A DNA stretch of 64,000 nt, taken from the NCBI GenBank assembly GCA_028712365.1, contig JAQTQE010000002.1, positions 22,366 to 86,365 of the forward strand, read 5' to 3'. Under the pieces are notes generated by a model. The model was not told the origin of the DNA, ran no database searches, and was given only the letters and a program-made list of their open reading frames with translations. How positions within the stretch are numbered: the first letter of the stretch is position 1; the number at the start of each line of letters is the position of its first letter. This DNA comes from a bacterium. Lineage in GTDB: Bacteria; CAYTYR01; UBA6262. Position numbers and translations under genes: made by a program. Positions 12,028-63,860 of the stretch are shown here, piece after piece.

Positions 12028-12315
12028 TTTTGTTCACTTAGGGTATATTGGCTCGCTGTCACGCTGAGTCATTCCGAAAAACGAGTCGATTTCCCCGGCG
12101 CGGAAATCGCTCTCTATCTCGCTTGAGTTCTCCCGCAAGGCGGGAGGTGAAGAGTCCATGCCAACTCAAGCTTCCGAAGGTTTTCTCCATGACATTCAGC
12201 GGCCGCGCTCGCCTATACTTATAGATTCGCTCAAAAAACAACCGAGTTCCCTGATCTATACAGTTACCGTTATCATCAGAGTAACTGGGAGTGGCGAGGG
12301 TATTAGACAAGACCC
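12028..12315. other. Highly structured intergenic element (ncRNA or MITE-like)
   Basis: Nested stems CGCTGA/TCAGCG, GTCAT/ATGAC, CGATTTCC/GGAAATCG, GCTTGAGTT/AACTCAAGC, CTCCCGC/GCGGGAG, plus TATAGAT/ATCTATA, CAGTTAC/GTAACTG, GGGT/ACCC. Confidence 0.55.
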
Positions 12316-27509: not shown

Positions 27510-27603
27510 CCTTCCCGCGAAGGATTTCTATATTTAGCAAACAGGTATTCGGACTTTAACCGTTGCGGGGCAGTGTCTGATTTTCACAGACTTCCCCTGT
27601 TTG
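27510..27603 (-). ncRNA. Cobalamin riboswitch (minimal form)
   Basis: CAAACAGG-GGAA-GUCUG-UGAAAAU-CAGAC-ACUGCCCCGCAACGGU-UAAAGUCCGAAUA-CCUGUUUG plus hairpin CCUUC-GCGG-GAAGG whose loop complements CCGC (kissing loop); upstream of btuFCDB. Confidence 0.88.
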
Positions 27604-27622
27604 TTTTCATTTCAATAGTACT

Positions 27623-30156: not shown

Positions 30157-30996
30157 TCAGGTTTTACCTCTTTTATAATCCTGCATTTTTTCCAGAAGCT
30201 CAAAAGGGACATCCATATTGCCCATTAATACCTCATTCTTGTCGATCTCTCCATGGCAATCACTGCCGCCGGTGATCAGTAAATTGAATTCACTGGCATA
30301 TTGGCGGAACCGGTCCATATCAGATTTGCTGTGGCGGCTGTGATAAACCTCGATCCCTTTAAGTCCGAATCCTACCAATAAGTCGATCATATCCCGGTTG
30401 ATCTCGGAAAAATAAGGATGCGCCAATGCCGGTATGCCGTCAACATCAGTGATCATTTTAATAGCTTGCTCCGGTGTAAGCCTGGCTTTAGGCACGTACG
30501 CTGGTTTGTTAAAGCCGATAAAACGCTGGAAAGCCTCCTGAATATTGTGGACATAGCCTTCTTCTAAAAGGGCTTGGGCAAAATGCAGGCGGCCGATGGC
30601 ATTATCATTGGCCATTTCCAGCAGTTTAGCCCCGTCCAGGAAAACATTCAAGTCTTTGAGTTTTTCCAGTATCATAACCGCCCGTTCATGGCGCTTTTTA
30701 CGGAAAAAGCTCAGTCTTTCCTGAAAAGCTGCGTCCTGGTAATCTAAGTAATAACCCAAGATATGCAGTTCCAGATCAGTACGTCCGGGCATCTCTACGC
30801 TTAACTCTACCCCTGGTACCACTTCCAACCCGAATTGCCGGGAATATTCCTGCGCAATAGGAACTCCGTCAGTGGTGTCATGGTCAGTTAAAGCTATGGC
30901 CGACAAATTGCGTTTGACGGCATATTCTACTATCCTCTGCGGGGTGAGAGTCCCATCGCTGAAGATGGAATGTACATGCAAGTCTATATATTTCAT
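30157..30996 (-). CDS. PHP-domain phosphoesterase (YciV/TrpH-like)
   Basis: DLHVHSIFSDG, TDHD, GVELS, HILGY, AHP, TGGSDCHG. Confidence 0.92.
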   Translation of the reverse strand: MKYIDLHVHSIFSDGTLTPQRIVEYAVKRNLSAIALTDHDTTDGVPIAQEYSRQFGLEVVPGVELSVEMPGRTDLELHILGYYLDYQDAAFQERLSFFRKKRHERAVMILEKLKDLNVFLDGAKLLEMANDNAIGRLHFAQALLEEGYVHNIQEAFQRFIGFNKPAYVPKARLTPEQAIKMITDVDGIPALAHPYFSEINRDMIDLLVGFGLKGIEVYHSRHSKSDMDRFRQYASEFNLLITGGSDCHGEIDKNEVLMGNMDVPFELLEKMQDYKRGKT

Positions 30997-32321
30997 TAAA
31001 GCAACTGAGCCGCTAAAGCAGCCAGCGGGCTCCTTTCAGTTTTAGTAAAATTAATATGTCCGTAAATTTCCTGCCCTTTCAGCTTTTCGACGACATAAGT
31101 CAGCCCGTTGGATGATGCGTCCAGGTAAGGATTGTCTATCTGGTACGGATCGCCGGTAAAAACGAGTTTGGTACCCTGTCCCGCGCGGCTGATGATAGTT
31201 TTAACTTCCGACGGGGTCAGGTTTTGCGAGTCATCGATAATAATAAATTGGTTCGGCAGGCTGCGGCCGCGAATATATGTGAGAGCTTCAATTTCCATTT
31301 TGCCGGTTTCCGTGAGATACTGGATCTTCGATTCCGTATCTTCCTCACCAACTTTATCAGTACCCTTTTCCATCAGGAATTCCAGGTTGTCGTATATAGC
31401 GCCCATCCATTGGGTCAATTTTTCTTCTTTGGTGCCAGGCAGGAAACCGATGTCCCGGCCCATAGGCATGATGGGACGCAGGACGAAGAATCTGCGGTAT
31501 AGTTTTTCTTCGACGGTTTTTTGCAGAGCGGCGGCTAAAGCCAGCAAGGTCTTGCCAGTGCCTGCTACGCCTACCAGGGTTACCAGTTTAATATTATCAT
31601 CCATCAATAGGTCAATGGCAAAACGTTGTTCCGTATTAAGCGGTTTCAGGTCCCAAATACGGGTGTCTTTGCGCAGGGGTACTATCTCTTTAGTGGATTT
31701 AACATATTTGCCCAATGCTGACTGGCTTTTATCACCACTGGATTTCAGAATGGTGAATTGGTTGGCAAAAAGGTCATCATCGCTCAGTTTTATTTTTTTG
31801 TTCTGGTAAAAGGCGTCGATCTGTTCACTGCTGATCGCTATTTCTTTGCAACCGGTATATAGTTCATCTATTTTTACTTTAGAGCGCTCATAATCCTGGA
31901 CTTTTAAGCCTATAGCCTCGGCTTTAATACGCAGGTTGATGTCCTTGGATATGAAGTAGACGTCTTCACCCTTGTTTTGGATAGCAAGAGCAGTCATCAG
32001 TATCTGGTTATCATCATTGTGATTACGGAATTCAAACGGCATTTCAATTTTGCTATCAAGCTCTATCTTGAGGATGCCGCCATTATCCAACTCAACGCCA
32101 TCATTTAATTTGCCTTTTTTGCGAAGTTTATCCAAATAGCGGGAAATAATACGTGAATTACGACCGCGTTCATCGTGGAATGTTTTAAAGCGGTCCAATT
32201 CTTCGATCACGATCAAAGGGATCGATATTTTGTTATGTCCGAAAACGGAGAGCGCTTCCGGGTCGTGAATGAGGACGTTGGTGTCTAACACAAATGTTTT
32301 AAATGGTTTTGAAAGGATCAT
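30996..32321 (-). CDS. PIN-PhoH protein (PhoH2/YlaK-like)
   Basis: VLDTNVLIHD (PIN), GVAGTGKT, RGRSL, IIDDSQNLT, GDPYQID. Confidence 0.92.
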   Translation of the reverse strand: MILSKPFKTFVLDTNVLIHDPEALSVFGHNKISIPLIVIEELDRFKTFHDERGRNSRIISRYLDKLRKKGKLNDGVELDNGGILKIELDSKIEMPFEFRNHNDDNQILMTALAIQNKGEDVYFISKDINLRIKAEAIGLKVQDYERSKVKIDELYTGCKEIAISSEQIDAFYQNKKIKLSDDDLFANQFTILKSSGDKSQSALGKYVKSTKEIVPLRKDTRIWDLKPLNTEQRFAIDLLMDDNIKLVTLVGVAGTGKTLLALAAALQKTVEEKLYRRFFVLRPIMPMGRDIGFLPGTKEEKLTQWMGAIYDNLEFLMEKGTDKVGEEDTESKIQYLTETGKMEIEALTYIRGRSLPNQFIIIDDSQNLTPSEVKTIISRAGQGTKLVFTGDPYQIDNPYLDASSNGLTYVVEKLKGQEIYGHINFTKTERSPLAALAAQLL

Positions 32322-32341
32322 TAACCCCCCTGTTGAGATAG

Positions 32342-32425
32342 TTTTAAATTTTGAGTTTTGAGTTTTGAATTATTGTGAAATACTTTTACCTAAACTTAAA
32401 ATTTATAACTCAAAACTTATAACTG
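32342..32425. repeat. 7-nt periodic inverted junction element
   Basis: TTTTAAA TTTTGAG TTTTGAG TTTTGAA ... AAACTTA AAATTTA TAACTCA AAACTTA TAACT. Confidence 0.8.
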
Positions 32426-32441: not shown

Positions 32442-32512
32442 AGCGGGTGATGGGAATCGAACCCACGTATGAAGCTTGGGAAGCTTCCATTCTACCATTG
32501 AACTACACCCGC
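32442..32512 (-). tRNA. tRNA-Gly (CCC), CCA not encoded
   Basis: GCGGGTG acceptor/CACCCGC, D-arm TAGTTCAATGGTAGAA, anticodon stem GAAGC-TTCCCAA-GCTTC, T-arm GTGGGTTCGATTCCCAT, discriminator U. Confidence 0.96.
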
Positions 32513-32860: not shown

Positions 32861-33862
32861 TTACTTTTTCTTGGCTGGAGCTGCCGGGGTTGCCGGAGCT
32901 GGTGCCGGGCTAGAATGGCTTTCAGTTTCATTGCCGCCCCAATATAAGTTTAAAGCGATCTGATTGGTGTTCTCCATTTTTAATTTATCTACTTTATAAC
33001 AATAATCCAATCCGAGGAAGCCCATCTTCAGACCAAATCCGGCGGTCAGGAAGTTATCCGCCATGCCTGTTCTTAAAGAAAGGTTATACGGCAGGCTGAA
33101 CTCTGTCCCGAAATTGTAACGGATACGTTTCCTGGTAGTATATTTTTCCGCGTCAACAGATAGTTTCACGTTGTAGCTTCTGGCTCCTGGATCAAAAAGG
33201 TCATAACTAGTCCCGATCTTTGCCACCATGGGAACTCTTTCAGAATAATCGCCATCCCATCCGATATTAGTATAGATATCTTGCAGGACCATAGCTGCTT
33301 TTAGTTTTTCAGTTAGCAGGAACATTGTACCCAGGTCAAAGCCGAATCCTGTCCCGGAAGCATCCTGGATCTTGCTCTGCAATATTTTCAGGTTTACGCC
33401 CAAGCTGATATCCTCGGCTAATTTTGGGGCATAAGATAAGAGCAATACAGTATTGCTCTCTTTGAAGCTGCCGGTAGGATAATCGTAAATATCATAACCG
33501 TCAATATCCTTGACCCCGCTCATGATCGCGCTAACCCCGAGTTTCCAGTCAGGCAGTATCACACTGGCATAGTTATAATTCCTATCCAGGGACATTTTGC
33601 TATAGACCAGCCCGACCTGGTTTTGCTTGATGAAAGGGATACCTGCCGGATTCCAGTAGGCTCCGCTGTTGTCATCAGCGACAGCGATAAACGCGCTGCC
33701 CATGGCCAGGGCTCTCGGCCCAACGCCGGTTTTCAGATAGGGAGCAGCTTCCCCAGCCTCGCCAATTTCAGGTTCGGTATTCAGTTCCCAACTATAAGCA
33801 ATTTGTGCGGTAAACGCTAAGATCAGGCACAGCAATAATAGAAGTTTATTTTTCATGATCAT
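32861..33862 (-). CDS. PorV/PorQ-family outer-membrane beta-barrel protein
   Basis: LKTGVGPRALAMGSAFIAVADDNSGAYWNPAG, LGVNLKIL, FGFDLG, NFGTEF, FLTAGFG; C-terminal Pro/Ala tail. Confidence 0.85.
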   Translation of the reverse strand: MIMKNKLLLLLCLILAFTAQIAYSWELNTEPEIGEAGEAAPYLKTGVGPRALAMGSAFIAVADDNSGAYWNPAGIPFIKQNQVGLVYSKMSLDRNYNYASVILPDWKLGVSAIMSGVKDIDGYDIYDYPTGSFKESNTVLLLSYAPKLAEDISLGVNLKILQSKIQDASGTGFGFDLGTMFLLTEKLKAAMVLQDIYTNIGWDGDYSERVPMVAKIGTSYDLFDPGARSYNVKLSVDAEKYTTRKRIRYNFGTEFSLPYNLSLRTGMADNFLTAGFGLKMGFLGLDYCYKVDKLKMENTNQIALNLYWGGNETESHSSPAPAPATPAAPAKKK

Positions 33863-36800
33863 CCCTCCTGCCTGCGGACTACCGCGATTTTTATTATCTT
33901 ACGGACTGTGCGACCGGCATAGTCTGATGCCGAGCCACTGACCTGTATCTCTGCAAAGTAAGTGCCATTAGCTACTTTCCGGCCGTTGTCATTGGTCCCG
34001 CCCCACTTGAATTCGACTAAACCTTTGGACCAAGTGTCATTTCTCTGCAAAATGGTGACCAGATCGCCGTTAAAATCATAGATCCGGCAAGTGATATTGC
34101 CATTTTCACTTAAAATAAACCGGATCGTGGTATCTTCCCGGTCAGGATCAAACGGATTGGGATAGTTGTGGGCATCGCTGAGTTCTTCCATTTTCGTATA
34201 GGTCAATACCCCGCTATATTCAGTATAGTTGCCGACTTTATCTGTTATCCTTAATACATACGGATAATCACTGGCATCAACCAGGCCGGTGGCCTCGAAG
34301 GTCATGAGATCAGAATCCTGGTCGTAGGTGGTACAGTAATATGTCGTACCATTCACTTTAAGATAACTGCCGCCAGCCGCCCAAGCAGAATTGATACCGC
34401 TGCCGTTATCAGTGACTTTTGCGCTGACGATCGGCCCGTTGATGGAAATATCGTTAGCTACCGGCTTGGCATAGTCAGCGATTACGCTATAGATGGAGAA
34501 ATGCGTGGTCGTGCAGGTAGCGCCGGTGTTTCCTGCCGCGGCATGAACTACATTTTTATCCCTGACCCATTTTTGTGTTTCCGCGTTCCAGAAGCAGATT
34601 GTCAGCTTGGACTGCAGGATGGTAGAGTTCGGGTATAATCCACCGGTGTTAGTAAGGTTAGGATAATTGAAGCTTAAGGTCAGCGGCGCAATAGTAGTGA
34701 TCCCATTAGCCAAAGACAAATTCATTGCCGGACCAACCGCAAAAATATCAGGTTGTGTGGTCACTGGTGTAGTTACGGAATTTATTACAATATTTGTATT
34801 TTCTTTTAAAGTGTTCGCATTCATAGTATAGCCAAAACCGAATTGCGCGGTGCCGGCTAAAGTATGTGTTCTTGTAATATCTATAGGGACAACGCCGACA
34901 TTACAGCTGCGGGTGATGGTTTCACCGTTTGAATTCTGGGCAGTCACGCTGATGGCGGCGTAAACGTTATTCGTAATAGCAGCATTAGTAACGGTAGCCT
35001 CCCAACTAGTGCCGCTTCCGGTCACCGTTACTGCGCTTGGTAAAATAAAATTGGTGTCTCCAGAAGAACTATCAGTTAATGTTATACTGATAGTCGGTTG
35101 ATTACTTGAATCCACATGGGCGGTAATCGTGTTGGTAGTAGCGTCCATGGCACCCTGTATGGAAAAGACCGGATCAACCTTAGCCGCAGACTCTACAATG
35201 TCTACGGTCGTCGCTTCTTTTGATATCCAAATATTTATAGCCGACGGACTGGGGTCAACATTGCCAGCCAGGTCAGTCGCTATGGCCCGGAGATAATAAG
35301 CTCCCGTGGCCAGGGTAGTCACATTCCACGGAATGATAAAATTGTCATCATTCTTGGCATCTGTGCCAATAGTTGTCCAAGTAACATTATCCGTAGAATA
35401 TTGGAACTCAACTTTTTTGATGTTAGTTTCCGTATCATTGACATAGGCTCTCAAATCAATACGTGTCGGCCAAATAGTTGTGGTGATAGTCCTGATGAGA
35501 GCATGCGGCACAGTTATATCAGCCATTGGATTAGTGGTAATATTGATAGCCTCTGCGGCTGAAGTATTTCCCGCCCTGTCTACATACGTTACGGTCAGGG
35601 TAGTCACTCCCGCTGCGATCGGCATCGGACACTGGTACGGAGCGGTGAAATCCCAGTATACATTAGTTCCGTCGGTAAAAGCGGCATATTTAATATCTGT
35701 GTCTGTAGGGGTTTGCAATTTTACTTCTACTATACTCCCCTCATTTACCGCAATATTATTAGCCGGAGCAGTGATGATCGGTACTTTTGGCGCATTACCG
35801 TCAATGACTGCCAAATCGATCGCGGTATGATCATTGGAGTTTAAGGCATTATCCCGGATTGTGCCTATCACTATACCGGTCAATCCATCCCCTGTGGTAG
35901 CGTTGATAGCGGCAGTAGGCGTGAAAAAGCACATCGTATTTGTCGGAGCATCTACCCAGAATGGACCAGCCAAAAGTATCGGTGTTTTTCCGGTGGGTGT
36001 GTAGCTGGCATACGCTATATCATAAATTCTTTCGCTGAAAGTAACATAAAACCGCGGAGTCTGGCCATTGCCGATATAACCTACATTATCGGTAAATGAC
36101 CCGTCACCATCTTCATCTACCTGGATGCTGCTCACAGTAGGTTTAACAGTATCAATAATTAATTGTGTTGATAAAGAGTCCTGGGTAAAACCATTTACAT
36201 CTTTGCCTCCGGAAATAGTTACTATTGCTTCTCCGTCGCCGGTAGTATCAGTTATGGCAAAGGTTTGCTTGACCGTGTCACTGGATACTCCTGTTGCTGA
36301 CCAGACTGTATCAGTGCCGGTTATAGCAGTTTTCCCTTTGGGGGTAATGGTAATGTTTGGAGTGACGCTGGTATCCATCTTTCTAAAGGCATTAAAGACA
36401 TTGGTAAACCAGGCGGTGATATCCTGGTTGCCGGCTTTAATGTAGGTTTTGCTGTTTACTACATTAGTGGTACTATAAGCGACAGCTGCTACCTGTGGAT
36501 TCTGGTTGATTTTCAACCAGATCAATCCAGGGCTGGGATCAGTGCCGCTGCTGTTTGAAGCCACAGCGCGGGCTTCATATACTCCGCCATTAGTCAATGA
36601 GCTGATATCCCAGGCTAAGGGATAAGGTGCAGCTGTGCCAGTGCTGCCTAAGACTGTCCAGGTGCTTTCACCCTGAAGTCTATATGAATATTCAATGTTG
36701 GTGGGGACTCCGGTAGTCGATACGGTAAGAGTCAGGTTAGCAGCAGTGGTGCTGGCACTGTAACTGCAAACACTTGTGCCATCCGCATAAGAGTCTATGC

Positions 36801-36891
36801 GCGCGGTTGGAATATCTGCCTGTGCCAGTCCGGGTAAAAATAATGATCCAAGAAGAAGCAAAGCTATAACTGGAAGAAAATACTTCTTCAT
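33859..36891 (-). CDS. Large secreted Ig-like repeat protein with C-terminal FlgD-Ig/T9SS type A CTD
   Basis: Signal peptide; two related Ig units (WDISSLTNGGVYEARAVAS / WNVTTLATGAYYLRAIATD); C-terminus HNYPNPF...IYDFNGDLV...WGGTNDNGRKVANGTY. Confidence 0.8.
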   Translation of the reverse strand: MKKYFLPVIALLLLGSLFLPGLAQADIPTARIDSYADGTSVCSYSASTTAANLTLTVSTTGVPTNIEYSYRLQGESTWTVLGSTGTAAPYPLAWDISSLTNGGVYEARAVASNSSGTDPSPGLIWLKINQNPQVAAVAYSTTNVVNSKTYIKAGNQDITAWFTNVFNAFRKMDTSVTPNITITPKGKTAITGTDTVWSATGVSSDTVKQTFAITDTTGDGEAIVTISGGKDVNGFTQDSLSTQLIIDTVKPTVSSIQVDEDGDGSFTDNVGYIGNGQTPRFYVTFSERIYDIAYASYTPTGKTPILLAGPFWVDAPTNTMCFFTPTAAINATTGDGLTGIVIGTIRDNALNSNDHTAIDLAVIDGNAPKVPIITAPANNIAVNEGSIVEVKLQTPTDTDIKYAAFTDGTNVYWDFTAPYQCPMPIAAGVTTLTVTYVDRAGNTSAAEAINITTNPMADITVPHALIRTITTTIWPTRIDLRAYVNDTETNIKKVEFQYSTDNVTWTTIGTDAKNDDNFIIPWNVTTLATGAYYLRAIATDLAGNVDPSPSAINIWISKEATTVDIVESAAKVDPVFSIQGAMDATTNTITAHVDSSNQPTISITLTDSSSGDTNFILPSAVTVTGSGTSWEATVTNAAITNNVYAAISVTAQNSNGETITRSCNVGVVPIDITRTHTLAGTAQFGFGYTMNANTLKENTNIVINSVTTPVTTQPDIFAVGPAMNLSLANGITTIAPLTLSFNYPNLTNTGGLYPNSTILQSKLTICFWNAETQKWVRDKNVVHAAAGNTGATCTTTHFSIYSVIADYAKPVANDISINGPIVSAKVTDNGSGINSAWAAGGSYLKVNGTTYYCTTYDQDSDLMTFEATGLVDASDYPYVLRITDKVGNYTEYSGVLTYTKMEELSDAHNYPNPFDPDREDTTIRFILSENGNITCRIYDFNGDLVTILQRNDTWSKGLVEFKWGGTNDNGRKVANGTYFAEIQVSGSASDYAGRTVRKIIKIAVVRRQEG

Positions 36892-36943: not shown

Positions 36944-38416
36944 TTATTTTGCTGCAGAGGTCAACATTTTTTTACAGTATTCATATGCTTGTGTCTTAGT
37001 AGTGACCAGTTTTTGCGCTTGTGCTTCCTTCAGGTTATTGATCATCTGGCCAATAAGCGGTCCTTCGGACAGTTTAAATCTTGCCATGATCTCATGACCA
37101 TTGAGCAAGTTTCGCGGCACGATCTGTTTGTGTTCGGTATAATATCTTTTTATGATCGCGCGCACTACCCGTAGATGCTGCGCGGCATTTACCGGATAGA
37201 TATCCTGCTTTTTCCTGGTGATCACGGTTTCTTCCGTAGTGTAAGCATCGGCAATGGATAAGACCAAAGTATCCAGCCCTTCTTCTTTCAGGTCCCGGAA
37301 ATAACGGTAGACCGCTTTATCACTGATCTGGTCCAGCGCCGATAAATTTCCCGGCCGCATATGATTCATAATAATATTTTTGATCGTATTCGTTTCCTTG
37401 TTAGAGAAATGCAGGCGCGCCAGTATTTTGTCCGCGTATTGCGCTCCGGCCAATTCATGGCCGAAGAAACGGCTGCGACGGCCCTCTTTTGTTTCCGTAT
37501 CCGGTTTGCCGAAATCATGCAGCAGGTAGGCTATCTTCAGGGTTACCCAGCGGGGAACACCGGTAATGACTGTCGTCTGCAGATGCCGGGTTATTCTAGG
37601 GCCATAGCCAGGCAAGTATTTATTTGTTTTAAGGATAATATTTTCCAGGTGCGACAATCCCGAAAGCGTATGGCTCCAGACGCCTGCCGGGCCATAAAAA
37701 TTCCTGGCCGCGGCTTTTAATTTGTTTATCTCCGGCAATAATACTTCCAGCAGGCCCTGTTTATCCATAGCTTTGATAAAGGTAACGCTAGCGGGGCAGG
37801 ATAATATTTTAAGAAGCTCTTCCCGCACTCTTTCCATAGAAACTTTTTTGATCAAGCGGTTCTGGCGTGATATCAATGATAAGGATTTTGCTTCCATTTT
37901 AAATCCCAGGACCGCGGCCAGGCGGAAAGCCCGCAACATGCGCAGCGGATCATCCTTATATATATCTTTCCCCACCATCCGGATGGTTTTGTTCTTAAGG
38001 TCTTTTTGCCCTCCAAAAGGGTCTATCAGGTTTTTTCTATCAACTATCAACAATGAACTATCAACTAATCCCATCGCCATCGCGTCTATCGTAAAATCCC
38101 GTAATGACAGGTCTGCTTCAATAGAGCCGCCGCGCAATTCAGCGAAATCGTAATTAAAGATCATTGGTGGTTGATCGTTCGTGGTTCGTAGTTTCAGGAC
38201 TACGCGGTAGATTTTGTTTTCTTCATCCAAAGAGAAATAGCTTCCTTTGGTGGCTTTGGCAAATTTCTTTGCCAGGCCCCGGGCGTCTTTGCAGGCCAGG
38301 TCAATATCTTTAGTGTCCCGCCGCAGCAGGATATCGCGCACAATACCGCCGACCAGGTAGATTTTATGGGTATGTTTGATCGTTTGTAATTTATTCTGGA
38401 TTCCAGCAACAGACAA
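36944..38416 (-). CDS. tRNA nucleotidyltransferase with HD domain, CC-adding type
   Basis: YLVGGIVRD, KDIDL, DLSLRDFTIDAMA, DDPLRMLRAFR, H...LLHDFGKP; flexible loop between motifs A and B missing. Start placed at TTG 38416 (SD AAGGAG 9 nt upstream); the track gives GTG 38458. Confidence 0.85.
   Translation of the reverse strand: MSVAGIQNKLQTIKHTHKIYLVGGIVRDILLRRDTKDIDLACKDARGLAKKFAKATKGSYFSLDEENKIYRVVLKLRTTNDQPPMIFNYDFAELRGGSIEADLSLRDFTIDAMAMGLVDSSLLIVDRKNLIDPFGGQKDLKNKTIRMVGKDIYKDDPLRMLRAFRLAAVLGFKMEAKSLSLISRQNRLIKKVSMERVREELLKILSCPASVTFIKAMDKQGLLEVLLPEINKLKAAARNFYGPAGVWSHTLSGLSHLENIILKTNKYLPGYGPRITRHLQTTVITGVPRWVTLKIAYLLHDFGKPDTETKEGRRSRFFGHELAGAQYADKILARLHFSNKETNTIKNIIMNHMRPGNLSALDQISDKAVYRYFRDLKEEGLDTLVLSIADAYTTEETVITRKKQDIYPVNAAQHLRVVRAIIKRYYTEHKQIVPRNLLNGHEIMARFKLSEGPLIGQMINNLKEAQAQKLVTTKTQAYEYCKKMLTSAAK
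38037..38193. repeat. Pair of oppositely oriented heptamer arrays inside the nucleotidyltransferase CDS
   Basis: CTATCAA CTATCAA CAATGAA CTATCAA CTAATCC (38037-71) and GATCATT GGTGGTT GATCGTT CGTGGTT CGTAGTT (38159-93). Confidence 0.65.
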
Positions 38417-39356
38417 AATGTTTTTCTCCTTTTGGTTCAAGTATTGGTACCATTTCACGGCAGCGGTCTTCAGCTTTGGCGCAACGCGCGTAAAAAGCGC
38501 ATCCTTTTACCGGGACAGGGAGTTCATCTTTTTCCAGCCCAGCCAGGACCGCGTTTTTCCTGGTTCTAATAGAAGGGATGCTTTGGATCAGCATTTTAGT
38601 ATAGGGATGAAATGGCCTGGCAAATAATTCCTCACTGTCTGCCAGTTCCATGATTTTGCCCCGGTACATTACCGCGATCCTGTGAGCGATGTGTTTGACT
38701 ACTCCCAGGTCGTGGGAAATAAAAAGGTAGCTTAAGTCATATTTTTGCTGCAAGTCCTTGAACAAGTTGATTATCTGCGCCTGGATAGAGATGTCCAGCG
38801 AAGAAACCGGTTCATCCGCGATGATCAACCGGGGATTAAGCGATAGTATCCTGGCCAGTCCGATGCGTTGTCGTTGGCCGCCGCTGAGCTGGTGCGGATA
38901 GCCATTGACGATATCATTAGGCAGACCGACCAGGCCTAGCAGTTCTTCCACTTTAGTCCTGGTATCCTTTTTATTATGCAGGCGATGGATCCTGATCGGC
39001 TCAGTGATGATATCATAAATACTCTGGCGCGGATCCAGGGAGGAGAACGGGTCCTGGAATAGAACTTGTACTTTTTTACGGAAAGCGGTTAAATGTTTTC
39101 CTCTGAGCGAGTAAATATCCTCATCGTCAAAAAGAACCTGCCCGCCAGTCGGCGGCAGTAGATTAGCGATCAGCCGGCCGCAGGTGGTTTTGCCGCAACC
39201 AGACTCCCCGACCAGCCCCAAGGTTTCTTTGACCGCGATAGAAAAATCAACACCGTCAATGGCTTTGACCGTTCCGACGGACTGTTTGAAGACGCCCTTT
39301 TCCACCGGGTAATATTTCGTGAGGTTTTTTACTTCCAGTAAATCAGCCATGATCAT
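38391..39356 (-). CDS. oppF: Oligopeptide ABC ATPase OppF/DppF
   Basis: [43 protein letters not shown]-terminal Cys cluster. Confidence 0.9.
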
Positions 39357-40049: not shown

Positions 40050-41033
40050 TTATCCTTGAGTTACGTTTATTTGTTTAAAACATCGAACAAAATGCTGTTC
40101 TTCAATTTCAACCATCAGCGGGCCGGCGTCTTTGCAAGCAGTAAGCGCTTCAGGGCAACGCGGATCGAACGGACAACCATCCGGCAGGTTGCCTGGATCA
40201 GGAATTTGTCCGGTGATCTGCACCAGGCGCTCTTTCCGGGTGGCAATATCTGGCACTGAATTCAACAATCCGATAGTATATGGATGCAGCGGATTATTAA
40301 ATATTTTTTCCCGGGAAGCTAGTTCTACGATCTGCCCCGCGTACATGATGGCGACCGTATCAGCAATCTGGCTGACAATAGCCAGGTTATGGGTGATCAT
40401 TAAGATCGACATTGTCAGTTCACTTTTAAACTTGACCAGCAAATCCAGGATTTGCGATTGGATGGTAACATCCAAGGCAGTTGTTGGTTCATCAGCTATT
40501 AGTAATTGCGGGTGACAGGCCAGGGCCATAGCCAGCATAGCCCGCTGCTGCATACCACCGGATAACTGGTGCGGATAAGATCCATACCGTTCTTTGGGTT
40601 GCGGTATATTGACTAACCGCAATGCATCAATTGACCTCTGCCGGCATTCTTCCTGGCCGAGATCAGGATTATGCAGTTTGATCGCTTCTTTGATCTGGTC
40701 CCCTACTTTAAATACCGGGTTCAAGCTGGAAAACGCTTCCTGGAATACCATCCCGATCTTATTACCGCGATAATCACGGCATTCATCTTCTGAAAACTTG
40801 ACTATGTCCCGCCCGGCGAAAAGGATCTGGCCTGAGATGATCTTGCCCTGTTTCGGCGGTATCAGGCGCATGATCGACAAGGCGATGGAAGATTTACCGC
40901 AGCCTGATTCCCCTACCAGGCCGATGATCTCTCCCGGTTTAACCGCCAGGTCCACTCCCCTGACTGCTGGAATGGCCTGCCCGCCTTTGTAATACTCTAC
41001 GTTTAAATCTTTAATTTCCAATAAATTTTGCAT
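40050..41033 (-). CDS. oppD: Oligopeptide ABC ATPase OppD/DppD
   Basis: [37 protein letters not shown]. Confidence 0.92.
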   Translation of the reverse strand: MQNLLEIKDLNVEYYKGGQAIPAVRGVDLAVKPGEIIGLVGESGCGKSSIALSIMRLIPPKQGKIISGQILFAGRDIVKFSEDECRDYRGNKIGMVFQEAFSSLNPVFKVGDQIKEAIKLHNPDLGQEECRQRSIDALRLVNIPQPKERYGSYPHQLSGGMQQRAMLAMALACHPQLLIADEPTTALDVTIQSQILDLLVKFKSELTMSILMITHNLAIVSQIADTVAIMYAGQIVELASREKIFNNPLHPYTIGLLNSVPDIATRKERLVQITGQIPDPGNLPDGCPFDPRCPEALTACKDAGPLMVEIEEQHFVRCFKQINVTQG

Positions 41034-41046
41034 TATTTTGCCTTTT

Positions 41047-41070
41047 CAATCAACTATCGACAAGCTACAG
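41047..41070. repeat. Short heptamer arm at the oppC stop
   Basis: CAATCAA CTATCGA CAAGCTA CAG, same type as 38037-38071. Confidence 0.45.
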
Positions 41071-41880
41071 TTTCGGGTCAATTACTTCCCTAAGCCCCTC
41101 TCCAATCAGGTTATATGAAAGTATCGTGACCAGTATAGCCAGGCCGGGGAATAAAGTCAGCCACCAGGCAGATTCGATGTAGTCTTTGCCTGAAGTAAGG
41201 ATATTGCCCCAACTGGGCATCGGCGGCTGTACGCCCAGCCCGAGAAAACTCAATCCTGATTCCACTAATATCGCGTCAGCAATACCCAGCGTGGCGGTTA
41301 CCAGTACCGGTCCCAAGGCATTCGGCAGGATATGCTTAAAAATTATTCTCAAGTCAGAAGCCCCGATAGCTTTAGCCGCATAGACATATTCTCTCTCTTT
41401 CACCGATAAGATCTCTCCCCTGACCAGCCGGGCAATGCCTGGCCAGCTGGTAATGCCGATAATGATCATCACATTATAGATATTCGGTCCTAATACCGCG
41501 ATGATCATCAAGATGAGAAAAAACGAGGGAAAGCAGAACATGATATCGACAAAGCGCATGATCAGGGAATCGATCCAATGGCCATAAAATCCCGCTAGAG
41601 CGCCGAAAAATACGCCAATAAACAAAGAGATGCCCACGGCTATAAAACCCACGGAGAGCGATATCCTGGCCCCATAAATAATGCGTGAGAGCACATCCCG
41701 GCCAAGTTCATCCGTACCTAACCAATGCCTGATCGATGGCTTTTGCAGCCGTTCCAGGATGTTCTGGCTGGTTGGTTCATACGGTACGATCTTAGGCGCC
41801 AATAAGGCTACTGCTACCAGTATGGTTATGATGACCAGGCCTGATACAGCTAAGCGGTTATTTTTTAGTTTCTGCCACAC
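41065..41880 (-). CDS. oppC: Oligopeptide ABC permease OppC
   Basis: HWLGTDELGRDVLSR, EREYVYAAKAIGAS, ESGLSFLGLG; GTG start. Confidence 0.92.
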   Translation of the reverse strand: MWQKLKNNRLAVSGLVIITILVAVALLAPKIVPYEPTSQNILERLQKPSIRHWLGTDELGRDVLSRIIYGARISLSVGFIAVGISLFIGVFFGALAGFYGHWIDSLIMRFVDIMFCFPSFFLILMIIAVLGPNIYNVMIIIGITSWPGIARLVRGEILSVKEREYVYAAKAIGASDLRIIFKHILPNALGPVLVTATLGIADAILVESGLSFLGLGVQPPMPSWGNILTSGKDYIESAWWLTLFPGLAILVTILSYNLIGEGLREVIDPKL

Positions 41881-47344: not shown

Positions 47345-48412
47345 TTATACTCCTGACATTCCTACATAGCTTTTGAGTTGTTCGGCATTATGGGCTTTGC
47401 TGACTGCTTCTTCCAAAGAAATCATGCCTTCTTTTATCAAATGATGAAGAGCCCGGTCCATACTGACCATTCCCAGTTTGGTTCCGGTTTCAATAGCATT
47501 ATAGATCAAATGGGTTTTACCTTCACGGATGAGATTGGAAATAGCCGGGACATTGAACATTAATTCCCTGGCGGCGACCCTGCCTTTGCCGTCTTTACGC
47601 GGTAATAATTGTTGTGAAATAACCGCGCGCAGGGCTACGGACAATTGCATTCTAACCTGCTGTTGCTGATGTGGCGGGAAAACATCAATGATGCGATCAA
47701 CGGTTTGGGCCGCATCGTTGGTATGTAAAGTGGCAAATACCAAGTGCCCTGTTTCTGCGATTGTAATGGCCGCGGAAATAGTTTCCAGGTCGCGCATTTC
47801 ACCGATGAGCACTACATCCGGATCCTGGCGCAGTATATGCCGCAGAGATTCGGCAATAGAATGAGTATGCGTTCCCACTTCTCTTTGGGTAACGACACAA
47901 TTACCGCTTTCGTAGACATATTCTATCGGATCTTCGATAGTGATAATGTGGCCTTTTCTCTCGCGGTTGATCATTCCTAATAAAGAAGCTAAAGTTGTTG
48001 ATTTACCGCTGCCGGTAGCGCCGGTTACCAGGACCAGGCCGGAATTAAGCTTGGTTAGATCGGTGATGTTCTGTGGCAGCCTGAGATCTACCGGATCGGG
48101 AATGGTAGCGGGAATGATCCTTAAAACCGCTCCCAGACCGTCCTTTTGGCGCAATAAATTCACCCGGAACCGGCTGATCTGTTGCAGCTGGAAAGAAGTG
48201 TCAAGCTCCCATTTTTGCTCGAAGAGAACCTGCTGTTCATTGCCTAGCAAAGCGTAAATCATTGTCTTAATATCAATACTGCTGAGCGCCGGTAAATTAA
48301 GAGGCAGCATTTCCCCGTTGATGCGATTCATTGGCGGCTTGCCCGGGGTTAAGTGGATGTCACTGGCGTTTTTTGCCACGCTGGTTTTTAAGATTTCAAA
48401 AATATCAGCCAT
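47345..48412 (-). CDS. pilT: Type IV pilus retraction ATPase
   Basis: ASDIHL, GATGSGKSTT, TIEDPIE, LRQDPD, GEMRD, ETGHLVFATLHT, AIRNLIRE-like AISNLIRE. Confidence 0.93.
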   Translation of the reverse strand: MADIFEILKTSVAKNASDIHLTPGKPPMNRINGEMLPLNLPALSSIDIKTMIYALLGNEQQVLFEQKWELDTSFQLQQISRFRVNLLRQKDGLGAVLRIIPATIPDPVDLRLPQNITDLTKLNSGLVLVTGATGSGKSTTLASLLGMINRERKGHIITIEDPIEYVYESGNCVVTQREVGTHTHSIAESLRHILRQDPDVVLIGEMRDLETISAAITIAETGHLVFATLHTNDAAQTVDRIIDVFPPHQQQQVRMQLSVALRAVISQQLLPRKDGKGRVAARELMFNVPAISNLIREGKTHLIYNAIETGTKLGMVSMDRALHHLIKEGMISLEEAVSKAHNAEQLKSYVGMSGV

Positions 48413-48430
48413 GTTATCTCCTTCGGAGTA

Positions 48431-48500
48431 AATCCTAATTTCTAAACTCTAAATACTAAACCATGAAAATTCGAATTTAGATCTTAGAATTTCGAGTTTG
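48431..48500. repeat. 7-nt periodic inverted junction element
   Basis: AATCCTA ATTTCTA AACTCTA AATACTA AAC ... TTCGAAT TTAGATC TTAGAAT TTCGAGT TTG. Confidence 0.8.
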
Positions 48501-48505
48501 TTTTA

Positions 48506-48850: not shown

Positions 48851-48863
48851 ATTTTTCTCCTTC

Positions 48864-48898
48864 AACCCGCAACTCGAAGCTCGCTAACTCGTAACTGT
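48864..48898. repeat. Solo heptamer arm
   Basis: AACCCGC AACTCGA AGCTCGC T AACTCGT AACTG between a stop codon and an SD. Confidence 0.6.
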
Positions 48899-48900
48899 GT

Positions 48901-50251: not shown

Positions 50252-50433
50252 AAGTACAAATACTAATTTCGAATATCTAAATTCTCCCCTGCTGATCCCG
50301 ATAAATCGGGATCAAAGACGCGAGGACAGGTAAACAATATCAAATGTCCTAATATCAAAACTAAAGCATGTATTTGTTTGAGAAATTATAATTTTGGATT
50401 TGTTTAGTATTTCGATATTAGATATTAGAATTT
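50252..50433. repeat. 7-nt periodic inverted element with nested 46-bp hairpin insert
   Basis: AAATACT AATTTCG AATATCT AAATTCT [insert 50286-50331] AAAC ... GTTT AGTATTT CGATATT AGATATT AGAATTT; insert has the perfect stem TGATCCCGAT/ATCGGGATCA. Confidence 0.8.
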
Positions 50434-50439
50434 ATCTTT

Positions 50440-52098
50440 TTATTGCTGCAGCGTATATTTCTGCAGTGTTTTGGGCACGTACCACTTAGTGAAATTATGA
50501 CCAATACCGATAGGTTCGACTTTGATATCCTGGAAACGTTTATCGACCGCGATCAACGAATCACGAACATAGAGAAAAGCATATGGCTGGTCTTCCGCTA
50601 TCAAGGCGTGCACTTTATGGTAGATCTTCATGCGTTCTTCCCGGTCGAATGTTTTTCTTCCCAGGGCCAGCAGGATATCTACCTGGGGATTCTTATAGGA
50701 AATAAAATTATATTCGCCTTCCTTGGTCTTTTCAGAAGACCAGATATCGAAACAATCAGGATCAGGGGTCATGCTCCAGCCTAACAAGATGGCTTCAAAA
50801 TTCTTTTTATCTATGTATTGGTGGATCAAAGTACTCCACTCCAGTATCCGCACATTTACTTTGATCCCGACCTTCTTCAATTGTTCCTGAATAATGGTAG
50901 CGGCTAGTTCGCGTTCTTTGTTACCCTGATTAGTGAGAATGGTAAATTCAAATACTTTGCCTCCCTTTTCCAGGTACCCGTCTCCGTTGCTGTCTTTCCA
51001 GCCGATACTGGCCAGCATAGCCCTGGCTTTTTCCGGATCATAATCATAAGGTTTTACCGCCGGGTTGTAAGCCCAGGAGCGGTTCGGGAATGGCCCCGTG
51101 CAAATAGTGCCCATAGACTGCAATGTGCCGTCGATTATTTCCTGGCGGTTGATCGCATAGCTGAGCGCCTGCCTGGTCCAGCGGCTATTTTTAAAAAGAG
51201 GATTATTAAGATTGTAAGCCAAATACGTATAATTAAACGAAGGATACCGGAACCGGTTGATCCCTTGCTCAAATTCCGGATCATTGGCCTCTTTGACATA
51301 CATATCCGCGGTCAAGCTCATCATATCAATAGTATGGGTTTTCAGCGAAAGCAGCTGTACTGATTGGTCAGGAATGATCTGGTAAATATATTTGTCAATA
51401 TAGGGACGGCCTTCAAAATAGTCGGGGTTGGATTCCAATACAACTTTTTGTCCGGTGCGCCATTCCTTGAATTTGTATGGACCGGTCCCGATGGGAAAAC
51501 GGTTAAAATCGCTCTGGTTGAATTCTTCCGCAGTCATTTCACCAAAAACGTGTTTTGGCAGTATGCCCATTCCCCAGGATTCCAGGGCCGGGGCAAAAGG
51601 CTCTTTATACGTGACAGTGACCGTAAAAGGATCCGGGGCCTCTACTTTAGAGACCAATTGGAAATTGCTGGAGAAAGCGGTCTTGATGCCAGGATCGATC
51701 AGTTTCTGGTAAGTAAAGATCACGTCTTCGCTAGTGAAGGGAAACCCATCGTGCCACTTGACGTTTTTTCGCAAAAAGAAAGTGATGGTCAAACCATCTT
51801 TGGAGACATCCCATTTTTCCGCCAGATCCCCTGCCAGTTTAATATCTTTATCATATTTTACCAGACCGTTGAATACCAAGTCGATAATATCGAATGAAGA
51901 ACTATCCGAGGCCAGGATCGGATTTAAAATACTCGGCTCCCCGATGGAACCGTAAATAATGGCATCCCCGTAAACCGGTATACTTTCCACAGTCGCTAAT
52001 CGCGAGCCTGGCCCATTGCTATGGTTTTTCACGAAATAAATAACGGTAACTCCGACCAGAGCAATTAAAATAAACACGAGCAGCATCTTCTTAGTCAC
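50440..52098 (-). CDS. oppA: Peptide ABC substrate-binding protein (OppA/AppA family)
   Basis: LNPI, VFNGLV, LAEKW, FLRKNVKWHDG, PIGTGPYKF, RQALSYAINR; GTG start. Confidence 0.9.
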   Translation of the reverse strand: MTKKMLLVFILIALVGVTVIYFVKNHSNGPGSRLATVESIPVYGDAIIYGSIGEPSILNPILASDSSSFDIIDLVFNGLVKYDKDIKLAGDLAEKWDVSKDGLTITFFLRKNVKWHDGFPFTSEDVIFTYQKLIDPGIKTAFSSNFQLVSKVEAPDPFTVTVTYKEPFAPALESWGMGILPKHVFGEMTAEEFNQSDFNRFPIGTGPYKFKEWRTGQKVVLESNPDYFEGRPYIDKYIYQIIPDQSVQLLSLKTHTIDMMSLTADMYVKEANDPEFEQGINRFRYPSFNYTYLAYNLNNPLFKNSRWTRQALSYAINRQEIIDGTLQSMGTICTGPFPNRSWAYNPAVKPYDYDPEKARAMLASIGWKDSNGDGYLEKGGKVFEFTILTNQGNKERELAATIIQEQLKKVGIKVNVRILEWSTLIHQYIDKKNFEAILLGWSMTPDPDCFDIWSSEKTKEGEYNFISYKNPQVDILLALGRKTFDREERMKIYHKVHALIAEDQPYAFLYVRDSLIAVDKRFQDIKVEPIGIGHNFTKWYVPKTLQKYTLQQ

Positions 52099-57272: not shown

Positions 57273-57782
57273 TTATTTTCTTTTCCGGCTTTTCTTCTTA
57301 ATTGAGGTTTTATTTGTTTTTTGGGGTTTATTGAATCTTTTGGTTTTTGCTTTTTTTACTTTTTTGGCGGTTTTGGTTTTTTTTGCTTTCTTAGCCGCTT
57401 TTTTCTTCGATTTGGGCGCCGCTTTCCTGGTCTGGCCGGATAATATTGAAGCGATGATCCCTAACGCAGTCATCGTATTGTCTTTTTGATCGGCTACCAG
57501 TACTACTACATCTTTAGCCGTAGCTTTACAAGCCGCCAATATCTTCTTCTTATCTTCGGCATTGATACCGTATTGCGGTAGTTCATCAGTTGAAATAAAA
57601 CCCCTGACGCCGGCTTTATCCATGATCTCTTTCTGTACGAGATTACTCAACCGGTCGTTATCTATAAGCACACCGTTAGCTCCGTTGATCTTGACTCCCG
57701 CGACAATGCCGCCATTATTGATCACTCCGGCGATGATATGAGACGCGGTCTTGCTAAAAAGAGAAGTCAGGTCCTGGATCAT
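57273..57782 (-). CDS. Stand-alone GatE-type insertion (GAD) domain with Lys/Ala-rich tail
   Basis: IQDLTSLFSKTASHIIAGVINNGGIVAGVK and GFISTDELPQYGINAE...DVVVLVAD resemble the archaeal GatE insert from memory; tail KAAPKSKKKAAKKAKK. Confidence 0.7.
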   Translation of the reverse strand: MIQDLTSLFSKTASHIIAGVINNGGIVAGVKINGANGVLIDNDRLSNLVQKEIMDKAGVRGFISTDELPQYGINAEDKKKILAACKATAKDVVVLVADQKDNTMTALGIIASILSGQTRKAAPKSKKKAAKKAKKTKTAKKVKKAKTKRFNKPQKTNKTSIKKKSRKRK

Positions 57783-60136: not shown

Positions 60137-60172
60137 TGCTCCTCCATAATTAAGACAATTTCAAATGGGTTT

Positions 60173-60207
60173 AGCTTTAAGCATCTAGCATTCAGCATCT
60201 AGCTTAC
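60173..60207. repeat. Solo heptamer arm overlapping the Memo stop
   Basis: AGCTTTA AGCATCT AGCATTC AGCATCT AGCTTAC. Confidence 0.7.
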
Positions 60208-63737: not shown

Positions 63738-63860
63738 AAATCCGAAGTACTAATATCTAAACCCTAAACAGATATACCAAACAAATACGATTTGTATTTA
63801 GAACATTTGCAATTGTTTAGAATTTAGAAATTAGATATTATACATTAGAGTTTTAGCATT
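63738..63860. repeat. 7-nt periodic inverted junction element
   Basis: AAATCCG AAGTACT AATATCT AAACCCT AAAC ... TTAGAAT TTAGAAA TTAGATA TTATACA TTAGAGT. Confidence 0.8.

Follow-up and report, generated by a model that had tools for sequence, protein, structure and literature searches.

The window analysed here is a stretch of 64,000 nt from a bacterium of the UBA6262 lineage (GenBank assembly GCA_028712365.1, contig JAQTQE010000002.1, positions 22,366 to 86,365 of the forward strand). Its minus strand carries a gene for a putative tRNA nucleotidyltransferase (cca), and within the coding sequence of this gene two short arrays of 7-nt units lie in opposite orientation on either side of the conserved DLSLRDFT motif. 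The two arrays, here called arm A and arm B, keep their position and phase among the close orthologues of the gene, and the sequence of the repeated unit changes from lineage to lineage. The locus is composed of the following features:

36944..38458, minus strand, gene for the predicted class-II tRNA nucleotidyltransferase, a 504-aa open reading frame (ORF) from GTG
38159..38193, minus strand, arm A (5' arm in the mRNA), encoding (K)LRTTNDQPPMI, the predicted tip of a beta hairpin preceding the strand with the invariant D104
38072..38158, minus strand, inter-arm segment of 87 bp, encoding FNYDFAELRGGSIEADLSLRDFTIDAMA, the catalytic core including RDFT, conserved in all homologues and non-repetitive
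38037..38071, minus strand, arm B (3' arm in the mRNA), encoding GLVDSSLLIVDR, the loop after motif B
38042..38193, strand not applicable, inverted match in which 38042-38065 pairs with 38170-38193 over 24 nt, 19 of them complementary (79%)

The product of the host gene is assigned to the class-II tRNA nucleotidyltransferases from its sequence. The protein combines a PolyA_pol head, which contains the GGxVRD..DxD and RDFT motifs, with an RNA-binding domain and an HD domain (Pfam PF01743, 6.4e-18; PF12627, 4.8e-17; PF01966, 1.7e-7; all above the cut-offs). Its best solved relative is 3wfo_A (E 1.7e-47), deposited under the title 'Poly A polymerase', which we take to be the CC-adding enzyme of Aquifex aeolicus. 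At E values of at most 1e-10, 1522 homologues were found, the nearest named ones (about 40% identity) belonging to Elusimicrobia, Omnitrophica or unclassified metagenome-assembled genomes, and the family alignment has invariant columns at G37, G38, R41, D42, D51, D53, D104, D116, L117, R120, D121, and F122. The first 68 nt of the 504-aa ORF are shared with the ABC ATPase gene upstream of it (38391-39356); the nucleotidyltransferases of the relatives are called as 490 aa, and the equivalent start in the window, 38416, reduces the overlap to 26 nt, suggesting translational coupling and a later start for the nucleotidyltransferase.

Both arms are situated 220-390 nt into the 1.5-kb coding sequence. 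Arm A reads GATCATT GGTGGTT GATCGTT CGTGGTT CGTAGTT on the plus strand (38159-38193) and AACTACG AACCACG AACGATC AACCACC AATGATC on the sense strand, and arm B reads CTATCAA CTATCAA CAATGAA CTATCAA CTAATCC on the plus strand (38037-38071) and (GGAT)TAGTTGA TAGTTCA TTGTTGA TAGTTGA TAG on the sense strand. At a lag of 7 nt, arm B matches itself at 17 of 21 positions and arm A at 15 of 21, and Tandem Repeats Finder reports a period of 7 with 4.4 copies at 38037-38067 (score 48) and a period of 14 with two copies at 38159-38186 (score 42). The translated segments are KLRTTNDQPPMI (38159-38194) and MGLVDSSLLIVDR (38036-38074). A preliminary description of this DNA had recorded two arrays of opposite orientation, 87 bp apart in the coding sequence, and its coordinates, spacing, peptides, and bracketing of DLSLRDFT were all recovered. 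Its count of five units per array was generous, as arm B has three exact and two degenerate units and arm A has only a weaker, degenerate nnTnGTT periodicity. In an AlphaFold2 model of the host protein (mean predicted local distance difference test score, pLDDT, 87.7), arm A occupies the tip of the beta hairpin E83-90/E99-107 (pLDDT about 73), and arm B corresponds to residues 132-140, with a pLDDT below 50 at residues 134-140. According to this model, both arms would lie in surface loops, one on each side of motif B, in agreement with the earlier placement of the arms in variable loops.

The periodicity of the arms exceeds what the composition of the window or the encoded peptides would produce. 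A lag scan of the window at a threshold of at least 20 of 24 matches gave three peaks at lag 7 and none at any other lag from 2 to 16, and a lag-7 score of at least 17 of 21 was reached in 0 of 100 second-order Markov simulations of the window. The 14-mer CTATCAACTATCAA, with up to two mismatches allowed, occurs four times in the window against an expectation of 0.43, and the inverted match of 19 in 24 was reached in none of 383 random 600-nt chunks of the window, the maximum being 17. When the arm peptides of the window were recoded synonymously with the gene's own codons, the observed scores corresponded to P=0.009 for arm A and P=0.0005 for arm B, and across the orthologues all 16 arms tested exceeded their synonymous recodings (P<=0.022, most <0.002). 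Because the lag-7 scores lie above those of the synonymous recodings, the periodicity resides in the DNA or RNA and not in the amino-acid sequence. With head-to-tail 7-nt units, in about four or more copies and above chance, the arms belong to the class of heptanucleotide repeats.

Orthologues were collected as syntenic loci found by exact-protein match, with the head-domain DNA aligned for seven of them; distant homologues (<=37% identity), obtained from family-alignment genome-contig and protein metagenome-contig searches, served as outgroup controls. Lag-7 arrays are present at both loops, in the same phase, in the window and in seven syntenic orthologues (65-88% aa identity), and in each 1.47-kb gene lag-7 peaks of at least 14 of 21 occur only at nt ~218-264 and 344-390. 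In each array-bearing orthologue examined, L148 included, lag 7 scores highest of lags 4-12. Outside the loops, the sequences form a core group with 77-88% aa identity and three deep lineages at ~65%, namely L007, which has both arrays, L144, which has only a weak arm B, and L145/P0011, which has neither. The repeated units on the sense strand are as follows:

Arm A: window, AAC-CACG type; L001, CGACGAA x3; L005, CCGCGAA; L007, CGGCCAA; L006 and L008, CTAGCGA/CCAGCGA; L004 and L148, GTCAGCG x4 (perfect in L004)
Arm B: window, TAGTTGA; L001, GAGTTGC; L005, GTCGCGG x4; L006, TAGTCGC/TGGTTGC; L007, CGGTTAG

The nucleotide identity of the arms between orthologues ranges from 21 to 98%, compared with 66-85% for the rest of the gene, and units resemble their neighbours within the same arm more closely than the homologous units in other lineages. 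Such turnover of the unit, combined with likeness within the arm, is concerted evolution, and it proceeds within a protein-coding gene at constant length.

The repeat also dictates what the loops look like as protein. In L004, the four GTCAGCG units are read through three frames to give SAVSGQRSA, and the loop peptides of the array-bearing orthologues are in this manner the repeat read through three frames; the proposal of the preliminary description that an array can serve as the source of loop sequence holds in this sense, codon choice fitting the periodicity in every arm tested. The consensus unit of arm B in the window, TAGTTGA, contains both TAG and TGA, and a perfect array of it would bring TGA-TAG into frame once per three units; exactly that unit reads TCA-TTG. 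Arm B departs from a perfect array at five places, four of which fall in would-be in-frame stop codons, so that it is about as perfect as an open frame permits. Likewise, in the four arms whose consensus unit would set a stop in frame, the unit is altered at that spot, and in L006 an in-frame TAG has become TGG, with the matching complementary change (CCA) in the other arm. The enrichment of changes that avoid stops has an odds ratio of 2.8 (P=0.013), a value that is partly tautological, as an open frame cannot hold stops. The reading frame is intact in all nine orthologues that bear arrays. Among contigs of eight metagenomes, no insertion or deletion was found in the arrays, although contigs drop rare variants.

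The preliminary description had suggested that elements of the kind found at gene junctions invade coding DNA by insertion, and had named loops of equal, alignable length in repeat-free orthologues as the observation that would speak against this idea. Such loops are what the comparison found, and lineage-specific insertion does not account for the segments. Across both of them, the alignment with the Aquifex enzyme 3wfo is gap-free. In the array-free L149/P0016 (43% identity; lag-7 maximum of 13 of 21, the same as at other lags) the loops differ in length by -1 and 0 residues, and L146/P0015 and L147/P0022, also without arrays, have loops of similar length. The closest orthologues (75-78% identity), all of which bear arrays, have identical loop lengths, and the lengths are equal in seven of the nine array-bearing orthologues, with 9 additional residues in loop 1 of L144 and in loop 2 of L004. 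In the array-free L145/P0011, the loops are 9 and 7 residues shorter, the deficit of loop 2 corresponding to 21 nt, or three units; in the alignment of the nucleotidyltransferase family, loop 2 varies more in length than any other loop. No empty site was found among the homologues aligned, there being no extra DNA relative to the array-free L149 or 3wfo, and the arms are loop-coding sequence of normal length rather than added DNA. The segment between the arms is the invariant catalytic core, so that arms and core cannot be one inserted element, and the closest orthologues bear arrays in the same phase, so that an insertion event, if there was any, would be older than the clade; the loops may have been colonised in the distant past, though no empty-site evidence for this was found. 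The layout also differs from that of a mobile element in that the arms enclose the conserved 87-bp core and not element-specific sequence. An inserted mobile element, such as a miniature inverted-repeat transposable element (MITE), a repetitive extragenic palindromic (REP) element or a small dispersed repeat, is contradicted by the equal length of the array-free loops and the conservation of the enclosed core. No other copy of the arm pair was found in the window except for a two-unit match of the arm-B type (CAATCAACTATCGA, 41047-41060), the sole other near-copy, which lies in the 31-nt junction of genes 40050-41033 and 41065-41880.

The two arms are complementary to each other in about five of the eight genes. 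Compared with the reverse complement of arm B, arm A matches at 25 of 25 positions in L006, 28 of 35 in L007, 19 of 24 in the window, 14 of 16 in L005, and 12 of 14 in L008, and the mean complementarity score is 12.0 within a lineage versus 6.3 across lineages. In L001 and L004, there is essentially no complementarity between the gene's own arms, though both arms stay periodic. RNA folding pairs the arms in six of the eight genes. Relative to shuffled sequences, stability is high in L006 (z -6.6 to -7.1) and lower in L005 and L007 (z about -2), and L001 and L004 give no fold signal above shuffles; in the window, the minimum-free-energy fold pairs the arms with an energy that is not exceptional (z -1.2 and -0.8). 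Rfam scans of the region, with both gathering and E-value thresholds, returned nothing relevant. Because pairing is lost in L001 and L004 while the arms stay periodic, which is not expected of a constantly selected stem, the uneven stem strength fits episodic homogenisation of the arms followed by decay better than it fits a constantly selected fold.

Among distant relatives, the RDFT motif was located in 130 cca-family genes, and 128 of these show no lag-7 signal around the motif. The two others have a strong lag-7 signal (19 and 20 of 21), both in loop 2:

6295-6335 of L061 (uncultured gammaproteobacterium), TTCAAGC x4 directly after RDFTINAMA
3982-4019 of L068 (Parcubacteria bacterium), AAGTTAA x4 directly after RDFTINAMA

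This coincidence may be due to the tolerance of loop 2, as it is the loop most variable in length in the family. Heptamer arrays in coding sequence are not rare in general, since 14 of the 36 outgroup arrays lie within long open frames, and the enrichment of cca among the coding heptamer arrays (4 of 14, against ~14% of the sequence) is not significant; what stands out is solely that L061 and L068 share the loop. CCCACTT-type arrays are also situated at, or just before, the 5' end of the cca ORFs in L105 (131-162) and L122 (3871-3921).

Apart from the coding arms, the lag-7 arrays of the window are intergenic, with the exception of a T-rich tract at 57337-57365:

30996-32321 (PhoH-like gene) and 32442-32512 (tRNA-Gly), with the inverted pair 32337-32377 and 32392-32424 between them, AGTTTTG/CAAAACT type, hairpin z -4.3
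48429-48462 with 48470-48501, inverted pair, CTAAnnn/nnnTTAG, immediately upstream of the ribosome-binding site that serves the minus-strand gene 47345-48412
48863-48900, single array, CAACTCG type, just upstream of the next small gene
50256-50285 with 50401-50441, inverted pair, CTAAnnn/TTAGnnn, with ~115 nt of non-repetitive sequence between the arms that has its own small hairpin (GATCCCGAT..ATCGGGATC)
60170-60198, single array, TAGCATC type, in a 62-nt junction between two genes
63750-63774 with 63811-63853, inverted pair, CTAAnnn/TTTAGAA type, z -4.9

Most of these junction arrays form inverted pairs, which give more stable folds than shuffled sequence does (z -4.3 and -4.9). The pair at 50256-50285/50401-50441 has an arm-core-arm layout and a spacing similar to those of the coding pair. 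The earlier view that the coding arms are of the same kind as the junction arrays is borne out by the shared lag of 7, by the four to five units, and by the inverted pairs that fold as hairpins, although the coding arms depart from the class habit of intergenic siting near gene ends. Where tRNA-Gly and the PhoH-like gene adjoin, the window, L004 (11972-12059), L001 (~12085-12160), and L006 (~7040-7130) each carry an inverted pair, with units that vary (GAGTTTT, GAGTTnn, TAGCTnn), and no array pair was found at this junction in L007. This junction pair evolves in the same manner as the coding pair, with a fixed position, a changing unit, and an inverted arrangement. Intergenic lag-7 arrays, such as TAGCGTA x4, also occur in the loci of the relatives, and array pairs are found in unrelated outgroup loci (Thermoflexales L030, z -8.4; gut-metagenome L096, z -9.7; L031, L059, and L122). 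In metagenomes from landfill, groundwater, and sediment (runs X1-X6 and X8), contig depth over the CTATCAA array (~38015-38068) rises 7- to 170-fold with unrelated flanks, indicating that (CTATCAA)n-like arrays are common in other members of those communities. Assemblies of the window's organism break there, and dozens of unrelated (CTATCAA)n contigs swamp the depth at 38030-38068, obscuring a strain-level comparison of the array. One unplaced 2240-nt contig of run X5 matches 38032-38066 at 35 of 35 positions. The same unit occurs as (CTATCAA)n in 15 contigs of a viral collection, mostly as three to five units at gene junctions.

The account that we favour, with a confidence evenly balanced between its being right and its being wrong, is that an old, position-fixed, inverted pair of heptamer arrays is tolerated in two beta-hairpin tips or loops of the enzyme and is kept homogenised by mutation. 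Transient slipped misalignment by one unit (7 nt) within an arm would make neighbouring units alike without a change in length, and intrastrand template switching between the inverted arms (quasipalindrome correction) would make the arms complementary, with selection purging only frameshifts, stops, and variants that damage the loops. The hairpin potential and the loop sequences would then be by-products of this self-renewal, and any effect on expression would be secondary. Quasipalindrome template switching and transient-misalignment mutagenesis are known from laboratory genes, where they create mutational hotspots (Ripley 1982; Kunkel; Lovett and colleagues). The outcome of these processes is length-neutral, perfects inverted arms, and evens out repeats, resembling what is seen in L006 (a 25/25 match between arms) and in L004 (four perfect units). 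To our knowledge, this kind of mutagenesis has not been described as sustaining the periodicity of a gene segment across long spans of evolution.

Several points weigh against this account. Homogenisation at constant length is what we infer from the pattern, no slippage or template-switch event having been directly observed, and arrays of four to five imperfect units are poor substrates for slippage, the +/-7 events of which are frameshifts. The model also gives no reason for the period of 7. Arm A is 98% identical between L004 and L148 against 83% for the rest of the gene, and 83% identical between L001 and L007 against 67%; arms that are more conserved than the gene around them would fit purifying selection on their sequence as well. 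Furthermore, the arrays at the same loop in the unrelated L061 and L068 could have a site-specific cause that lies outside the model.

Among the alternatives, an origin of the arms by chance, by composition, or as a by-product of the amino-acid sequence is scarcely credible; the shortness of each arm and the weak arm A of the window speak for it, and the Markov simulations, the controls at other lags, the random-chunk nulls, and the synonymous recoding all reject it. The arrays at identical positions in all eight clade members examined likewise speak against it. A phase-variable contingency locus, in which slippage by +/-7 nt would switch the enzyme off and on, has a precedent in neuO, where the AAGACTC repeat is in frame only if the repeat number is divisible by 3 (PMC13001214). 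Such a role is nevertheless very unlikely here, given four to five imperfect units per arm, a location in the middle of a housekeeping catalytic domain and not at the 5' end, nine array-bearing orthologues that are all in frame, and the lack of indels in contigs of eight metagenomes. That junction-type heptamer arrays entered the cca gene, either as insertions or through ectopic conversion by arrays at other sites in the genome, and so created new loop sequence, is the idea of the preliminary description in its surviving form; it is doubtful but deserves more credit than either of these. The coding arms share a class with the intergenic arrays, TAGTTGA/CTATCAA is widespread as the unit of other arrays (as seen from the metagenome depth and the 15 viral-collection contigs), two unrelated cca genes have an array at the same loop, in L068 within a longer loop, and the loops of the sister lineage P0011 are 9 and 7 residues shorter. 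Set against these points are the equal loop length in array-free homologues, the loop lengths, arrays, and phase shared by the closest orthologues, the conserved catalytic core between the arms, and the length of 35 nt, which is not divisible by 3; moreover, the identical unit was not found in the intergenic arrays of the same loci.

The strongest competitor, though still an unlikely one, is a functional nucleic-acid signal, either an mRNA or single-stranded DNA hairpin around the segment that encodes the active site or a set of cooperative sites for a protein that binds in 7-nt steps, which would place cca expression under the same post-transcriptional control as the hairpin-bearing gene junctions. 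Position and phase are kept down to 65% aa identity, codon choice fits the periodicity, the arms co-vary within lineages up to the perfect 25-bp stem of L006, and certain arms exceed the rest of the gene in conservation, all of which speaks for such a signal. The intergenic pairs fold significantly, their sites being just upstream of ribosome-binding sites or on the downstream side of a tRNA, and CspB has been reported to bind heptamer direct repeats with one protein per heptamer (PMC4679880). However, pairing is lost in L001 and L004 with both arms still periodic, the hairpin of the window is no more stable than its shuffles, L145/P0011 lacks both arrays and L144 one of them, there is no Rfam match, and the units differ between arrays of one genome, which makes a sequence-specific binder unlikely. 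A reading of the arrays as HutP-like UAG-N4 sites was set aside, as the unit varies from array to array and NAG is often missing from arm A. A further variant, improbable in our estimation, is that 7-nt-periodic hairpins are a recognised signal, read by a trans-acting factor (e.g., of the OB-fold or cold-shock type, with a monomer on each heptamer) or renewed through a mechanism of their own, with two loops of an essential enzyme co-opted as its carrier. If this were true, cca mRNA would be under the same control as the gene junctions, and the same-loop arrays of L061 (a gammaproteobacterium) and L068 (Parcubacteria) would be convergent.

Heptanucleotide repeats have stood out since 2007 as the long simple repeats most over-represented in bacteria, and as short tandemly repeated repetitive (STRR) sequences since 1990, and a 2015 account states that no detailed literature on them existed (PMC4692102). 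As two reports summarise, no other class of long simple-sequence repeat is as abundant in most prokaryotic genomes, and polymerase slippage has been put forward as the source (Mrazek et al. 2007 in PMC4679880, PMC4692102). According to the same descriptions, which include the cyanobacterial STRR (Calothrix heptanucleotides, cited in PMC4692102), the class consists of tandem 7-nt units, over-represented when compared with other unit lengths and typically in about four copies, and the junction arrays of the window fit it directly (PMC4679880, PMC4692102). The descriptions present these repeats as mainly intergenic and under-represented in coding sequence, whereas the cca arms form an in-frame, inverted pair in a catalytic domain, a pair whose position is fixed across a clade while its unit turns over. 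The TAACTGA repeats of marine Beggiatoaceae, cyanobacteria, and some Bacteroidetes resemble the arrays described here in that two to six heptamers lie just upstream of start codons, and in that the unit has forward stop triplets, a few copies being found within ORFs, in the translatable orientation (PMC4679880). They differ in having one genome-wide unit and pairs that are almost never inverted; in the present case, the unit changes from one array to the next, pairs are as a rule inverted, and orthologues retain the coding copies. Geobacter metallireducens contains 49 elements of four heptanucleotides (GGGACCG/GGACCGG x4), both inside and between genes (PMC2700814). These form a multicopy family that can be aligned by BLAST and has one consensus, with no reported positional conservation with unit turnover and no reported pairing around a catalytic motif (PMC2700814). 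In neuO, the (AAGACTC)n array in the 5' coding region is likewise translated in frame, three units giving a 7-residue peptide repeat, but the arrays are long and perfect (3-53 units), vary between strains, and mediate phase variation, in contrast to the four to five imperfect units of constant length in a housekeeping enzyme (PMC13001214).

What is new here is the position-conserved, inverted, in-frame heptamer pair with concerted evolution inside a housekeeping enzyme gene; the heptamer class itself is known and unexplained, with no accepted cause or function. The locus amounts to a natural experiment, in which the reading frame and the length of the loops stay constant, homologous positions can be matched at single-base level throughout the clade, and the arrays stay periodic despite the change of unit. 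It separates influences that intergenic DNA leaves entangled: selection at the protein level, excluded by the synonymous recoding; length-changing slippage, largely excluded by the constant length; and either length-neutral homogenisation or direct selection on the periodic structure. The question of why the units are heptamers thereby becomes testable at one alignable locus, where a repeat process at the DNA level can write the amino-acid sequence of enzyme surface loops.

Some further features of the window accompany the locus. Between cca and the tRNA, two genes (32861-36891), whose products are 1010 aa (with a FlgD_ig-like C-terminal domain) and 333 aa long, are present in the window, L005, and L006 and absent from L001, L004, and L007. 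A T-rich, degenerate 9-nt repeat (GGTTTTTTT, 57306-57383; ~9 copies, 61% matches) lies in the 3' part of the minus-strand ORF 57273-57782 and would be translated into a low-complexity tail rich in lysine. On the minus strand at 27535-27612, an AdoCbl-II (cobalamin) riboswitch aptamer is predicted with 56.7 bits (gathering score, 36.5); it lies upstream of an operon that encodes a Peripla_BP_2/FecCD/ABC transporter and a TonB-dependent receptor.

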